DNA of 64,000 nt from a virus (taxonomy: Duplodnaviria; Caudoviricetes). The stretch is taken from positions 1 through 64,000 of the IMG/VR virus record IMGVR_UViG_3300025150_000002. One strand, 5' to 3'. This document shows, one piece after another, positions 11,743 to 44,427 of this stretch. The notes below the pieces were generated by a model, which did not search any database, was not told the origin of the DNA, and worked only from the letters and a program-made list of their open reading frames with translations. Both the position numbers and the translations under genes were made by a program. Numbering within the stretch: the first letter of the stretch is position 1; every line of letters starts with the position of its first letter.

Positions 11743-11764
11743 GTATGCTCCTTGTTCACTTATC

Positions 11765-11833
11765 GTGGAGCCGGGAGTCGAACCCGGTCCGACTAGTTGT
11801 TAGGCCAGCCTGCTCGCCGTCGAGCATCTCCAC
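11765..11833 (-). ncRNA. tRNA-like cloverleaf, non-canonical
   Basis: GUGGAG/CUCCAC acceptor stem; UGCUCG-ACGG-CGAGCA arm; GGCUGG-CCUAACAA-CUAGUC arm with an 8-nt loop; perfect T arm CCGGG-UUCGACU-CCCGG; no encoded CCA. Confidence 0.65.
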
Positions 11834-11871
11834 AAACCTTTGCCAGCCCATCACTAGGCTAGCATCACTTG

Positions 11872-39163: not shown

Positions 39164-40816
39164 CTAGATGATGTATGTGGGAAACCCACTCCAATCGTCT
39201 CCGCCTTCCATCGGCAGGGGCGGCTCATCGGGCCATCTGAAGTTGCCATCAGCGGTCATTATGGCCTCTCCAGGAACCCCGGCGGCCTCGACGGCCACAC
39301 CCAACGAAATACCGCCTATTCCAATGTGCTGCCAGTTTGTGGCGAGGTAGTGGACAACGGCCGCGAAGGCGTCAGCTAGATCCTTCGACCCGGTCTTCGG
39401 GTGGTCAACCTTCGTTCCCTGATCGTTCAGCTCAAGCTCGCGAAGCTCCTTCGCGAGCATGGGGTAAACAGGCGTCTCGATCCGTCGCTCATACATCGCA
39501 CCCTGGGCCGCGAGGTACGGATCAAGCGTGCGTTGAGTCGAGATCTCCTCTGTCTTGAACCCGTGTCTGGCAATCAGCTGCAGGTTTGGGAGGCCCATCC
39601 AATGGTCCGCTGAGACGGACCGAATCGGAAGCCCTCCCTCGCGCAACTTATAGATGAGTCCTCGAACCAGTTCGTGCTCAATCTCGCCTGCATGAGGAGG
39701 GACAATGCGAAGACACATGTCGATGTGAATGATCGGGGCGTCCTCTTTGACCCGTTCACGAGTGACCGGGTCGAGACGGTCTACCTCTGTTTCTCCCGCT
39801 ACGTGGCCAACGCAGATGCCAGTGGCGTCTTTGTTTTTGGAGAGGTCCATGTGGCAGTGGCGGTGAGCATTAGGACAGCATCTCGGAACCGGATCACCAT
39901 GAACATTCGTCATGGTCATGTTGCCCCAGATGGGATTGATCTCCCGACTGGTGGTCCACTCGTAGACATGGAACGGGTGCGGCCGCTCCGGCTTCTGCAT
40001 GTCCTGGATGGCTTCTCGGTTCGAGAAGAACGGTCGGAACGACTCAAGCGCGATACCGGCGATATCGCGGGCCGCACCCGCCGGATCGTTCATGAACTCC
40101 TTGTAGTACTCGTCTGGGAACTTGAACCAGATCTCATCTTCTTCAGGCTGCTCTTCGTCCTTGAGAACCCGAACTCGACCGTGGTTTTGGTGTACAGCGG
40201 CACGCCACCATTTCTGACCAGCGAACGCGCCGGGCCGAACATCCCATGTCGCGTAGTCGCGACAGAAGACGTTGTTGTCCTCATCGGTAATGGCCTCGCG
40301 GAGTCGTCGCTCGGTAAAGTCGTGTATCGACTTTTTCGACGAGATCATGATCAGCCGACCGCGAAGACCCTTCGCCGCATAGGTGCCTCGAATACGACGG
40401 CGAAGCGAGTCGTAGATGCCCTCGGACTTATCATCCTTTCCACCACCCGCCGATACGTGGTTCCGTTGCTGCTTCGCGAAGAAGTTACCCTCGTCCATCA
40501 GCGCGGCCCAGACGTTGAGACCGAGAGCGGCGCCTTCACTCGAACCACCGGCGATGATGACGATGTCCTTTCCAGGAAACCGTATCTCCTCCTTGGTGTA
40601 ATCGTATCGTCCCTTCCAGAATGGGGCCAGCGTCATCTTCGCGACGATGCCCTTGAAGACGACTCGCTGAGCTGCCTCTTTGGTGTGCGAGATTGGGACG
40701 ATGTGAATAGTCTCGCCGCGTCCCAGGCCCAGGGTGTCAGTGGGGCGCTTAAGGCAATAGAGCTCGTATATGATTCGCAGCAGCGCTGTGGTGGAGAAGT
40801 AGTCCTTTCCATTCAA
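39164..40816 (-). CDS. terL: Terminase large subunit, main body (Walker A Lys onward, Walker B, nuclease)
   Basis: GKDYFST, LGLNVWAALMDEG (Walker B), MISSK, CHMDLSKNKDATGI and DHPKTGSKDLADA nuclease motifs. Begins out of frame with the N-terminal part. Confidence 0.88.
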   Translation of the reverse strand: MNGKDYFSTTALLRIIYELYCLKRPTDTLGLGRGETIHIVPISHTKEAAQRVVFKGIVAKMTLAPFWKGRYDYTKEEIRFPGKDIVIIAGGSSEGAALGLNVWAALMDEGNFFAKQQRNHVSAGGGKDDKSEGIYDSLRRRIRGTYAAKGLRGRLIMISSKKSIHDFTERRLREAITDEDNNVFCRDYATWDVRPGAFAGQKWWRAAVHQNHGRVRVLKDEEQPEEDEIWFKFPDEYYKEFMNDPAGAARDIAGIALESFRPFFSNREAIQDMQKPERPHPFHVYEWTTSREINPIWGNMTMTNVHGDPVPRCCPNAHRHCHMDLSKNKDATGICVGHVAGETEVDRLDPVTRERVKEDAPIIHIDMCLRIVPPHAGEIEHELVRGLIYKLREGGLPIRSVSADHWMGLPNLQLIARHGFKTEEISTQRTLDPYLAAQGAMYERRIETPVYPMLAKELRELELNDQGTKVDHPKTGSKDLADAFAAVVHYLATNWQHIGIGGISLGVAVEAAGVPGEAIMTADGNFRWPDEPPLPMEGGDDWSGFPTYII

Positions 40817-42429
40817 CCCCAGCGGGTGCTGTTATGAACGGAGATCCCATTGGCCGTGAATCGCGTCGGCCCAGGGACACCGATATCAGCAACACCCACT
40901 GGGTGGTTTGCCTCCTTCAGAGTCTTGATTTTTTCGTAAGCAACTGTGCTCGGGTAAGCCTCGGCAAGCGTCGTTACGCCCGCAACGTCACTAAAGTCCT
41001 CGCAGAACTCCTTGAACATTGATCGAGAAAACTGGACTGAGGAGCGCCCCAATCGATTCCATCCAAGCGGTGAGACCCCGCGACTTCTTCGCGATACTGC
41101 TTGCTGCTGCAACAGATGGGCGGCATCACCATAGGTAAAGGGGACGACATCTACATTGGTATTGGCGCGTGTACTGGAGACATAGTTTGCAATTTTCTCT
41201 GTTTCTTTCTCCTTCGCGAATACCTGACCAATGTGCTCCATGAACAGCCTGAGATTGTCAACACCTGTAACCTGAAGGCAGTAGCCGGTGGTTTCTTTAC
41301 CGTTCCTACTGGCCGTGTATTCGCGCGTTCGACTCTGGATGCTCCACCGAAGAAGAAGCAGCTGGACTTGCTGAATGAACCTCTCAGATGTCATTGCAAG
41401 CTGGAATCGGGGCGGCGATCCATCTCTATAGGCAACCGTACCCTCGGCGGCCCACACACGGTTGAGGAACAGAGCTACTTGATTCAGTGGTGCTCTACAT
41501 ACAGCATCTGGAACTTCCGCATCAGAGCAACCCATCCTGAAGATGCCCATCTGCTTGAGCCAGTCGCGGAAACCGCTGGTGATATAACGGCTTACATTAA
41601 CCTCCCAGGCGTTTCCCTTCGCATACGGCTCTGGCTTGGTAGCGTTGAACCCGAGAGCTTCGAGAGCCTCGATGAACTCCTGACCAGTTTTCTTACGACC
41701 ATCGCAGTAGCGAGCGCGAGTATCGGAAGATGAACCGTCAGTGACCATGTAGGCCAGGAGCTTCACCTCTTCGTCCCGAAGAGAGAAGTTCGACGGACGG
41801 TAGGTGATTTGTCTAGGCCGCAAAACGTAGTCCGACTCGACATCAAGCTGATCCGCTCTTACCCACCCACGCTGCGTGAGCACTCGGTGATCGGGGGTCA
41901 GCTTCACTCGCATCCCATTACGGAGTGTGAGCTCTAGCACCTTCATCACGCCCGAGTCGGTGCCCACAGTCGTGTCGTGGTGCCCGACTCCATCAGTCTC
42001 GTGGACGGTGAGGACACGTGTTTTCCGACCGATCAGGTCTCCAAGGATGGGCATGGAGCCGTCGGAGCACTGGACAAGGGCCTGCTTGTCGATGCAACCT
42101 GTGAGGATGCACTCAGCGTAGTCGCCCTCGAAGAACTCAATCATGTCCTCCTTGAGCTTTGGCCACAGTGTACGCGCCGTCTCCCCCAGGTAGTATTCGT
42201 CGTTGACCCACTGCGTTATAGGCACTGGCGGCCCAGTGTCTGGGTCCCATTCCATTCGTTCAGCTGCGTCGACGAGTTCCTGCTGCTGCTTTGAGGCTAG
42301 CTCCTGCACCAGCAGGTCTAGGGCTGCTTTCTCCTCCGCAGTCAGTCCTTTGATCTCTTCTTCGATGAGCTTTCGCGCCTCATCTACTGGACGATGGCTG
42401 CGGAAACGACCATTCGAGTAGACGATCAT
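40813..42429 (-). CDS. terL: Terminase large subunit, N-terminal part with intein; stops inside Walker A
   Basis: PVPITQWVNDEYYLG...LWPKL...ECILTG|intein|STRWG*. Joining to the next ORF restores GSTRWGKD. Confidence 0.85.
   Translation of the reverse strand: MIVYSNGRFRSHRPVDEARKLIEEEIKGLTAEEKAALDLLVQELASKQQQELVDAAERMEWDPDTGPPVPITQWVNDEYYLGETARTLWPKLKEDMIEFFEGDYAECILTGCIDKQALVQCSDGSMPILGDLIGRKTRVLTVHETDGVGHHDTTVGTDSGVMKVLELTLRNGMRVKLTPDHRVLTQRGWVRADQLDVESDYVLRPRQITYRPSNFSLRDEEVKLLAYMVTDGSSSDTRARYCDGRKKTGQEFIEALEALGFNATKPEPYAKGNAWEVNVSRYITSGFRDWLKQMGIFRMGCSDAEVPDAVCRAPLNQVALFLNRVWAAEGTVAYRDGSPPRFQLAMTSERFIQQVQLLLLRWSIQSRTREYTASRNGKETTGYCLQVTGVDNLRLFMEHIGQVFAKEKETEKIANYVSSTRANTNVDVVPFTYGDAAHLLQQQAVSRRSRGVSPLGWNRLGRSSVQFSRSMFKEFCEDFSDVAGVTTLAEAYPSTVAYEKIKTLKEANHPVGVADIGVPGPTRFTANGISVHNSTRWG
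40831..42096 (-). mobile_element. LAGLIDADG intein in TerL (422 aa)
   Basis: ILTG|CIDKQALV...LTPDHRVLTQRGW...YMVTDG...VADIGVPGPTRFTANGISVHN|S. Confidence 0.92.
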
Positions 42430-44427
42430 CTACTCACCATCCGTTAGCCGCTTCGGATCGTTGTCGACAACCGCGCCATTTACATCGATGGTGTTGGCAT
42501 CTTCAGTAGCCGCCCTGAGGATCTTCTCGGCAAGCCCGAGCAGTCGGTGGCGGGAGTTGGGGTTGTCAAGCGCGGTGAGCGGGTGGTCCTGACCAAACCG
42601 GTCCGCGAAGGTCGGCTGCTTGTCGATCCTGGCCCGGATCTCAATGCCAGCCTTGGGTAGGTAACCGGTCTCCTGGAGAATTCGGGTCTTGGTGCTCAGG
42701 GTCTTGGTAGCTATGTCCAGAAACTTGGCCTTTTCGCTGTTGTGTACGACTATGCCATCTGCGACAAAGTTGTGCTCCTTGTGCCCTACTTCGATGTCGT
42801 AAACAACTGCTTCCCCGCACGCTTCGATAGAGATCACCGACTCGGCGTGGAACGGCCGCTGTAGCTTCCTACGTGTGAAGTTAAGCGAGTGACTTGTCCC
42901 GCTCTTGATGAAACTACCATCCTTCAGGATGTGGTCGTCGGTCCTAGTCCGAGAGAGAATTCGACCGGATGCGTAGCCCAGACCATCGACTAGGCACTTC
43001 AAGTCCCGCACGAGCGCGTAGTTACAGAGCTCGACCGACACCTTCATCGAGTGGTGCGGCTTTGGTCTACAGCGGTGCCCGTCCCCATCCATGAATCCTA
43101 CGAGGAATGCCTCCCGATAGTCCTCAGACAGGCCGAAAACCCAGCCAGGAATGCGCTTGACGTGGGCTCCGTCAATCCAGCCGAGCCGGTCAAATACCCG
43201 TGCGAGCGCGACGGACGTCGAGTAGATGTTCTGACACCCTTGGTCTGTTGGGCGAATGTAGGCACGAGGATTAAACTGGCGCATCAGCTTGAGATAGACA
43301 TCGGCCAGATGACGGTCCTTACCGGGGTTTGCCACCAGCGTCGCCGTTCGCGAAGCGCGGTTGATCCAACCATCTGCAAGCCAGAACCCGAACAATCGAC
43401 AGAAATCGGGTGTTACCCGAGTTGGCAGGGTCAGATCGCTACAACCAGTGGCGCCGTGGCCGCCTGTCAACTCCCAGTGCGGTTTGTCCAAAACAAGGCC
43501 TACTCGGTCGAACATGTCAACCATCACGTGCAGCCGCACTCCATGCTTCCCTTCACGGATGTGGCTCCACTGGATCTTTAGCCCGTGGTCCTCCAGAAAC
43601 CGAGTTCTGAAGCCGTGCTTCTTCCACGTAATAGAGGCTGAATCCAACGTATCTTTGCCAAGAGTCGTCAGCCGCACGAAACTATCGTCTGAGAATCGCG
43701 GAGCGAGGGCGCGCAAAATGGGAGGAGCTGCGACAAACGCAGGCTCCGTCGCGATGACTATCTTGTCACCGACAACCCTAGGTGACACACTTCGGTTGCT
43801 CGTCGTGAGCTGGTCAAGGGCGGTCCACCGCAGACTACCCTTGGTGCTGCAGATAAATGGGTGATTCCCTGTGGCTACGATTTCGCGGTGCCGGGTTCTT
43901 AGCCTGTACACAGGCTGCTTGCCCTTCGGAATAAGCGCCACAACAGGGGCCATAACCGCCCCTCCCTCATCATGCACCATGACCAAATCACCGGCTTTGA
44001 TGTCCTGAATCTGCACCATACCTCGATTAGTCCAGATCCTGGTTTCGCCGAGTAGGCATCCGCTCTTGGCCATCGAATACTCTTGGAAGGCGGCAGCCGT
44101 AAGAGCGTCCAGCTTCTGCACGGTCATCCCGAGCTCGATATTGGCGTAATCGGGGTTGTCCTTGATGCGCCCAACTCGTTCTGCGACCTGCTCTCGCCAG
44201 TACTTGACATCCAGTGCTACCGTAGACCGGGCCACACCCAATAGGCCAGCCATCTCAGTCTGAGGAACCTCCTGACACATCATCTCCCAGATGTCTTGTC
44301 GACGACGCTCAATCGCCTGAGCGGTGTGCTTCTTCCGCTTGCTTTCCAACTGATCGAACTTCTTGCGAAATTCGTCGATTGATGCCTGAGCAGCCGAAGC
44401 CTTCTTGCTCAGCCTCTTCTTGGCCAT
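42430..44427 (-). CDS. Probable terminase small subunit (N-terminal HTH) with intein
   Basis: HTH QTEMAGLLGVARSTVALDVK; immediately upstream of TerL; about 225 aa after splicing. Confidence 0.7.
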   Translation of the reverse strand: MAKKRLSKKASAAQASIDEFRKKFDQLESKRKKHTAQAIERRRQDIWEMMCQEVPQTEMAGLLGVARSTVALDVKYWREQVAERVGRIKDNPDYANIELGMTVQKLDALTAAAFQEYSMAKSGCLLGETRIWTNRGMVQIQDIKAGDLVMVHDEGGAVMAPVVALIPKGKQPVYRLRTRHREIVATGNHPFICSTKGSLRWTALDQLTTSNRSVSPRVVGDKIVIATEPAFVAAPPILRALAPRFSDDSFVRLTTLGKDTLDSASITWKKHGFRTRFLEDHGLKIQWSHIREGKHGVRLHVMVDMFDRVGLVLDKPHWELTGGHGATGCSDLTLPTRVTPDFCRLFGFWLADGWINRASRTATLVANPGKDRHLADVYLKLMRQFNPRAYIRPTDQGCQNIYSTSVALARVFDRLGWIDGAHVKRIPGWVFGLSEDYREAFLVGFMDGDGHRCRPKPHHSMKVSVELCNYALVRDLKCLVDGLGYASGRILSRTRTDDHILKDGSFIKSGTSHSLNFTRRKLQRPFHAESVISIEACGEAVVYDIEVGHKEHNFVADGIVVHNSEKAKFLDIATKTLSTKTRILQETGYLPKAGIEIRARIDKQPTFADRFGQDHPLTALDNPNSRHRLLGLAEKILRAATEDANTIDVNGAVVDNDPKRLTDGE
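42739..44058 (-). mobile_element. LAGLIDADG intein in the TerS-like protein (440 aa)
   Basis: MAKSG|CLLGETRIWTNRG...ATGNHPF...FWLADG...FLVGFMDGDG...VYDIEVGHKEHNFVADGIVVHN|SEK. Confidence 0.92.

Follow-up and report, generated by a model that had tools for sequence, protein, structure and literature searches.

The large terminase gene (terL) of a groundwater phage carries, in the middle of its Walker A loop (P-loop), a gap of 8 nucleotides (nt), TGAATGGA, that opens with a stop codon. From comparison with related genes we consider it probable that ribosomes bypass this gap, giving a continuous terminase precursor. The gene lies on the minus strand of the stretch of DNA analysed here, positions 1 to 64,000 of the IMG/VR virus record IMGVR_UViG_3300025150_000002 (64,000 nt, hereafter the window), and the phage genome was recovered as one contig (203,521 bp, 58% GC). 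Gaps of 5, 6, 8 or 16 nt occur at the same codon junction in 11 divergent lineages, drawn from independent metagenomes, and removal of the gap restores the sequence WGKD in each of them, regardless of gap length or frame.

Recurrence of the gap at one codon junction

At the junction the minus strand reads CAT AAC (40833-40831), then AGC ACC CGC TGG GGT, TGA, AT, GGA and AAG GAC TAC. One open reading frame (ORF; 40813..42429, minus strand, 538 amino acids) comprises the N-terminal part of the terminase up to ECILTG, an intein (CIDKQ...NGISVHN), STRWG and the stop. A second ORF (39164..40816, minus strand, 550 amino acids), in the -1/+2 frame, opens TTG AAT GGA AAG and reads LNGKDYFSTT.... An earlier annotation made from the letters alone (the sequence-only reading) had drawn attention to GGT TGA AT GGA AAG following the intein, and both the minus-strand sequence and the two ORFs bear this out. 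The portion from the AAG codon onwards is 87% identical to residues 116-663 of P0005, an uninterrupted relative from a contig of ENA ERZ27256834, and its frame differs from that of the upstream part. The features of the locus are given in Table 1; the boundaries of the intein were placed by comparison with intein-less homologues.

Table 1. Features of the terL locus in the window
Feature	Position	Strand	Basis
terL N-extein, 111 amino acids, MIVYSNGRF...YAECILTG	42097..42429	-	ORF and tblastn, 81% identity to P0005 residues 1-112
Type B intein, 422 amino acids, Cys1...VHN then +1 Ser, at Walker A LTG/S	40831..42096	-	Pfam and homologues
LAGLIDADG_3 domain inside the type B intein	41227..41481	-	Pfam, residues 317-401 of the 538-residue ORF
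AGC ACC CGC TGG GGT, S-T-R-W-G, first five C-extein residues	40816..40830	-	letters
GGT, proposed take-off codon	40816-40818	-	letters
8-nt coding gap TGAATGGA: TGA (40813-40815), AT and GGA	40808..40815	-	letters
GGA, proposed landing triplet at the 3' end of the gap	40808-40810	-	letters
Walker A Lys codon AAG	40807-40805	-	letters
terL remainder: AAG, Walker B, nuclease domain and stop codon	39164..40807	-	ORF, P0005 match

Relatives were collected by a search of 5.8 billion proteins, and the DNA was retrieved for those called as proteins of about 550 amino acids, as well as for 160 loci of JGI metagenomes and IMG/VR. Several relatives are indeed called as proteins of about 550 amino acids that start at the same spot as the second ORF of the window. 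Five uninterrupted relatives (P0005, P0007, P0008, P0010 and P0012; 662-663 amino acids, 77-87% identity) read LTGSTRWGKDYF, that is LTG-STRWG-KDYF, and deleting the 8 nt from the window yields exactly this sequence. Another relative, P0024, has the same intein as the window and a continuous HNSTRWGKDYF. Altogether, about 53 distinct alleles are without an insert. The 11 gap-bearing lineages, found in JGI, ENA and Logan assemblies, always have the gap between the Gly codon and AAR GAC (Table 2). The sequence-only reading had asked whether the insert or a stop would recur among TerL homologues; both do, at the identical Gly/Lys junction.

Table 2. Gaps between the Walker A Gly and Lys codons
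Gap	Length	Locus	Remark
TGAATGGA	8 nt	window; L004-L009; L031/L032	three lineages, follows GGY
TGAATGGT	8 nt	L021	
TGAATCGC	8 nt	L168	
TAAGC	5 nt	L007	
TGAGT	5 nt	L013	P0015 lineage
TAGGT	5 nt	L029/L030	
TGAGC	5 nt	L035	
TGAGGA	6 nt	L026	in frame
TGACCTCGAAATTCTC	16 nt	L034 = L096	

The gaps share three features. First, their first codon is an in-frame stop in 11/11 lineages, with TGA, TAA and TAG all used. Second, the Gly codon that precedes them is GGY in all 11, as against 30 of 53 among the alleles that have no gap (Fisher p = 0.005, without phylogenetic correction). Third, the last triplet of the gap has a middle G in 10 of the 11 lineages (GGA four times, GGT and AGC twice each, AGT and CGC once), the exception being CTC. 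Judging from the letters, NGN landing triplets of this kind would permit two or three base pairs with tRNA-Gly. The matched Gly-Gly layout stressed in the sequence-only reading holds for the window, and across the family it is only approximate.

The gene behaves as one that is in use. In the L004 phage, the product obtained by removing the gap has the length of P0005 (663 amino acids), which is the intact terminase of a sibling phage. The two differ at four residues, all near the C-terminus (99.4% identity). For the downstream ORF, comparison of gap-bearing alleles with one another gives a ratio of nonsynonymous to synonymous substitution rates (dN/dS) of 0.045-0.09 at dS values of 0.9-1.8. 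The downstream ORF is under strong purifying selection.

One contig has two gaps in a single P-loop (L026:150-200): the second is GGT/TGAGGA/AAG and the first, nine bases upstream, is a 5-nt gap, ATT/AGATC/GGG, with AGA as the A-site codon and a matched pair of Ile triplets, AUU and AUC; both rest on that one 2.2-kb contig. A megablast of the phage collection found no close relatives. In IMG/VR, a single-protein scan returned nothing, nor did pattern searches with the contexts of the 8-nt and 5-nt gaps. The genome_contigs collection contained only relatives of about 30% identity, in metagenome-assembled genomes, and gave no clue to the host.

Identity of the gene and position of the gap

Neither Pfam nor PHROGs recognised the C-terminal 550-residue ORF. 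By tblastn, this ORF matches 348 phage records (about 30% identity, E values down to 3e-59), many of which bear the annotation terminase large subunit. The gapless homologue P0005 had no match by sequence in the PDB. Its AlphaFold (AF2) model, compared with known structures by Foldseek, matched the HK97 large terminase best (6z6d, E = 1.8e-16), and also those of Sf6 (4idh), T4 (gp17, 3cpe) and D6E. The product of 39164..40807 is a large terminase, a protein that joins an ASCE ATPase to an RNase H-like nuclease, by tblastn and by the fold of this homologue, and the gene is single-copy, as there is no second terL in the 203.5-kb genome. In the P0005 model, residues 106-111 (ECILTG) form strand beta-1 and 112-116 (STRWG) a loop, and helix alpha-1 begins at K117. 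The gap therefore separates the Gly from the Lys of GxxxxGK, where the loop meets the helix (G116/K117).

Decoding of the gap

Bypassing would proceed as follows. With peptidyl-tRNA-Gly on GGU and the UGA stop occupying the A site, the tRNA would unpair, the mRNA would slide by 8 nt, and re-pairing would take place on GGA. Decoding would then pick up again at AAG to give one continuous precursor, from which intein splicing would leave ...ECILTG-STRWG-KDYF..., a normal Walker A loop. We infer both the hop and its efficiency from the sequences. Bypass is favoured because the gaps differ in length and the P-loop does not, and because there is a precedent at the same W-G/K-D position in the terminase of Streptomyces phage phiHau3. 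Gaps of 5 and 8 nt place the downstream part in the -1 frame, that of 6 nt leaves it in frame (0), and that of 16 nt places it in the +1 frame; consequently, no single direction of frameshift fits them all. These comparative data, that is, gaps of several lengths and a WGKD that is always restored, support the +8 hop from GGT to GGA that had been put forward on the window alone as restoring G-STRW-G-K-D.

Several observations count against bypassing. No RNA run was found to cover the locus. The take-off codon GGU and the landing triplet GGA differ, and a tRNA-Gly with a GCC anticodon would mismatch at the wobble position; moreover, the landing triplet of the 16-nt gap, CUC, is a poor one. The RNA around the gap of the window has no significant local structure (z = -0.8), and a hairpin found 13 nt 5' of the take-off codon in alleles with a type A intein (GGYGUU..AACACC; intein types are described below) is also present in the gapless allele L170. 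No stimulatory element was therefore identified. In addition, sequence differences between gaps of 5 nt or 8 nt are also silent when read in the -1 frame (L-S, L-G, L-N-G), so that these cases alone do not exclude a -1 shift; the same synonymy is also forced by a rule of a stop followed by NGY. Finally, the 6-nt and 16-nt cases represent one contig lineage each, and the lineage counts are not phylogenetically independent.

One alternative is a -1 ribosomal frameshift. While the stop occupies the A site, the P-site tRNA-Gly would slip by -1, leaving GGU for GGG within U GGG GUU GA; the gap would be translated, adding three residues (STRWG-LNG-KDYF; junction peptide STRWGLNGKDYF). In the window and in every 5- and 8-nt case the downstream part lies in the -1 frame, a stop behind a run of G makes a plausible shifty site, and the differences between gaps are synonymous in that frame (TTA, CTG and TTG for Leu, AGC and AGT for Ser, GGA and GGT for Gly). 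We nevertheless regard such a slip as unlikely. C UGG GGU UGA is no X XXY YYZ heptamer and no significant structure lies downstream. The 16-nt gap requires +1 and the 6-nt gap is in frame behind its stop, so that neither would be rescued. The slip would also place two or three extra residues (LS, LG, LNG or LNR) between the Gly and Lys of GxxxxGK. No in-frame insertion between WG and K, of this size or any other, occurs among about 140 homologues, though a one-base change would make one of two or three residues, and the P0005 protein, so close to the hop product of its sibling L004, lacks one as well.

Still less probable, in our estimate, is that the terminase works as two chains that assemble non-covalently, one of 117 amino acids after splicing (N-extein and STRWG) and a C-terminal fragment of 550 amino acids re-initiated at the TTG that overlaps the TGA (TTGA). 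In most alleles a TTG or GTG lies only a few codons away from the stop, and gene callers do annotate two ORFs. Split phage enzymes created by endonuclease insertion are known, Aeh1 NrdA being one. However, the split would cut the Walker A loop between Gly and Lys, no Shine-Dalgarno sequence precedes the TTG at a usable spacing, and neither the position nor the type of the candidate start codon is conserved, the nearest start in L034 being 18 codons upstream. In L026, the in-frame TGA directly precedes GGA AAG, so no re-initiated fragment could include the Lys. Furthermore, the stop always stands exactly after the Gly codon, which termination alone would not demand.

The window also contains a tRNA-like gene (11762-11835, minus strand) whose anticodon loop, aligned by Infernal as C-c-U-A-A-C-A-A, is 8 nt long. 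ARAGORN reports the gene as tRNA-?(Leu|Val), and its Rfam tRNA score of 22.7 is below the gathering score of 29. The only other tRNA gene of the genome is a tRNA-Ser(tga) at genome position 193585-193669. Expanded anticodon loops promote hopping or frameshift suppression, as in hopR1, a tRNA-Val; any link between the tRNA-like gene and the Gly hop site would be speculative.

Authenticity of the junction

The frame is broken inside an essential motif and the genome was assembled from a metagenome, two points that could suggest a defective terL or a sequencing or assembly artefact. This explanation, very improbable, is already contradicted: a contig of about 65x, possibly from the source sample, and contigs from two other aquifer or groundwater samples show 0 differences across 40808-40818, identical or similar gaps recur in no fewer than 11 lineages put together by different assemblers, and the downstream ORF has a dN/dS of 0.05-0.09 at saturating dS in a genome with no other terL. 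An assembly error had been among the alternatives of the sequence-only reading, and the agreement of three samples, together with the recurrence of inserts in unrelated assemblies, excludes it. The support for the junction comes from Logan contigs, not raw reads, so that minor variants may exist. The 16-nt gap was likewise recovered with 0 differences in contigs of two runs.

Contig ends fall close to these sites in two runs. The junction is left uncovered in run X7, where contigs belonging to the window's phage stop short of it on both sides (40785-40868), and in run X28 a 10-kb contig of a relative of about 90% identity stops exactly at the first base 3' of the 16-nt gap (L034:4001). Such ends may reflect branching of the assembly graph caused by intein or gap polymorphism within the populations.

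Inteins and the origin of the gap

All gap-bearing alleles carry an intein in the P-loop, and these inteins are of two types. Type A is inserted at ECIL/C...SSN/TGSTRWG, with the gap 21 nt downstream of the insertion site. Its endonuclease carries HNH_3, NUMOD1 and helix-turn-helix (HTH) domains, with HNH residues that are invariant in six alleles. Type B, the intein of the window, sits 6 nt downstream of the type A site. It has the marks of a class 1 LAGLIDADG intein, namely Cys1 (CIDKQ...), block B LTPDH, VHN/S and a LAGLIDADG domain, and Pfam detects Intein_splicing (8e-12) and LAGLIDADG_3 (2.5e-14) in the 538-residue ORF. By sequence, the type A intein had only an insignificant match in the PDB, I-HmuI (1u3e, E = 0.28), and its AF2 model was poor (mean confidence, pLDDT, 56).

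The frequency of the gap differs with the kind of intein. The gap was present in 7/7 alleles with an endonuclease-bearing type A intein, in 2/5 with a type A mini-intein, in 1/5 with a type B intein (the window only; P0024, L028, L036 and L067 have the type B intein without a gap) and in 0 of about 45 intein-less alleles, a tally that is not corrected for phylogeny. A stricter rule, that only endonuclease-bearing inteins carry gaps, proved imperfect and was dropped, as the mini-inteins L021 and P0031 are also gapped. The sequence-only reading had listed a repair scar of intein homing among its alternatives; this was right in spirit, since the gap travels with inteins, and is right only in part. 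In a tree of the 105 residues that follow the Lys, close siblings without a gap stand beside every gap-bearing allele. The sister of the window in this tree is L004 (support 100/90), which has an identical gap and a different intein. The intein of the window is of the LAGLIDADG and not of the HNH kind, and the gap there looks inherited.

We infer, by analogy with the T4 mobA system, that the gap may have arisen as self-protection of the HNH type A intein, and that the lineage of the window either kept it or acquired it separately. More tentatively, and with less than even confidence, we suggest that gaps opening with a stop could be the self-immunity part of a mobile cassette, made of an HNH intein and a bypass, that may outlive its intein. 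The endonuclease would read, 3' of the site where it is itself inserted, Walker A codons that do not vary. As W-G-K-D cannot be masked by synonymous substitutions, a frame-breaking insert 21 nt away would block self-nicking; ribosomal hopping would pay the cost of the gap. In the window's phage, the HNH intein would have been swapped for a LAGLIDADG intein 6 nt away, or the gap alone would have been gained, possibly by partial gene conversion under endonuclease attack. The essential ATPase would then stay behind two post-transcriptional steps.

The terminase family as a whole is a hot-spot for inteins. In P0005 numbering, insertion sites lie at about 109/112 (P-loop), 117/119 (GK/T) and 222/224 (Walker B DE), and further ones at 302, 370 and 589/590; some genes have three inteins. 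These sites come from breaks in tblastn alignments at L010, L012, L014, L017, L021, L023, L025, L047-L049, L054, L067, L075, L078 and L084. At the sites outside the P-loop the flanking pieces stay in frame; gaps occur at the P-loop site only. In the wider family, the cultured Rhodobacter phage RcKickapoo (L003; OP009274.1, 34-3171) has an annotated terminase of 1046 amino acids, with a P-loop intein after GAIGGGK and no gap. That intein opens with Arg-Leu-Ala, not with Cys or Ser, and from its sequence may belong to a non-canonical class.

Directly upstream of terL in the window, the gene at 42430..44427 (minus strand) encodes an HTH protein, TerS-like by position, with a LAGLIDADG intein of its own (C...VVHN/S; Pfam Intein_splicing, LAGLIDADG_3 and Hint_2). 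As terL and its TerS-like neighbour both carry inteins, both packaging genes require protein splicing.

Significance

To our knowledge, natural bypassing is found in very few systems, namely T4 gene 60 and its relatives, the byps of yeast mitochondria and, as a candidate, the phiHau3 terminase. Short-gap bypass of a terminase appears to be limited in the literature to phiHau3 and two prophages, and a series of several gap lengths and a link with inteins appear to be new. The terminases studied here form a natural allelic series at one codon junction, with gaps of 5, 6, 8 and 16 nt, three stops and several landing triplets. Near-identical gapless siblings serve as controls, which makes the rules of short-range hopping directly testable. 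The association of gap and intein brings protein splicing, homing endonucleases and recoding together in one catalytic loop. It also suggests that the logic of T4 mobA, in which a gap gives immunity to an endonuclease where codons cannot change, is general. On the practical side, gene callers split such terminases into two ORFs, and phage genomes may be scored as defective.

Comparison with known systems

We know of no report of a frame-breaking gap adjacent to a P-loop intein of the kind already described in phage large terminases. Such inteins, inserted like the present ones in the TerL Walker A loop, are treated by Kelley et al. 2016 (PMC5050341). Low-level stop-hops of +5 and +6 in Escherichia coli (Weiss et al. 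1987, as cited in PMC10732093) cover a similar distance, the peptidyl-tRNA re-pairing a few nt beyond a stop in the A site. However, those events were unprogrammed, occurred at about 1% and in synthetic contexts, whereas the site described here is retained by selection in an essential single-copy gene.

In T4 gene 60, self-nicking is blocked by the 50-nt bypass insert, which is located at a distance of 20 nt from where MobA nicks (Huang 1988 and Bonocora 2011, as summarised in bioRxiv 10.1101/2022.08.31.505936). The terminase gap resembles it in having a Gly take-off codon followed by a stop, in the proposed resumption of decoding after a Gly-like landing triplet, and in its place within a highly conserved region of an essential enzyme. 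The resemblance extends to the link, in type A alleles, with an HNH-type endonuclease and to the distance of about 20 nt between the gap and the site of the element (21 nt for type A). On the other hand, the terminase gaps measure 5-16 nt instead of 50, with no take-off stem-loop or nascent-peptide signal identified. The endonuclease is free-standing in T4 and part of an intein here, the window's own intein being LAGLIDADG and not HNH. Moreover, the gap blocks self-nicking in T4, and its protection against an endonuclease is, for the terminases, a proposal by analogy.

The closest system is the terminase of Streptomyces phage phiHau3, in which g6 ends ...LKGWG and g7 starts KDPLL... (PMC10732093, RNA Biol 2023; Smith et al. 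2013). Its DNA reads TGG GGC/TTACTCCGGT/AAG GAC, with a 10-nt gap whose first codon is the rare UUA, and with GGT as the landing triplet. In a variant with UAA in place of UUA, the junction peptide GWG-NDPLL was detected by mass spectrometry in E. coli, and the A-site UUA, a rare Leu codon, was proposed to act as a sensor of host tRNA (PMC10732093). Both systems have a short gap at the same Walker A Gly/Lys junction, a GGY take-off codon and a conserved protein that is restored by removing the gap. They differ in that phiHau3 has UUA in the A site where the window has a true stop, in that the phiHau3 terminase lacks an intein and belongs to another, unrelated-looking family, and in that a natural series of 5, 6, 8 and 16 nt over many lineages is found here. 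Judged by its letters, the terL junction of the window is a stop-codon version of the phiHau3 architecture.

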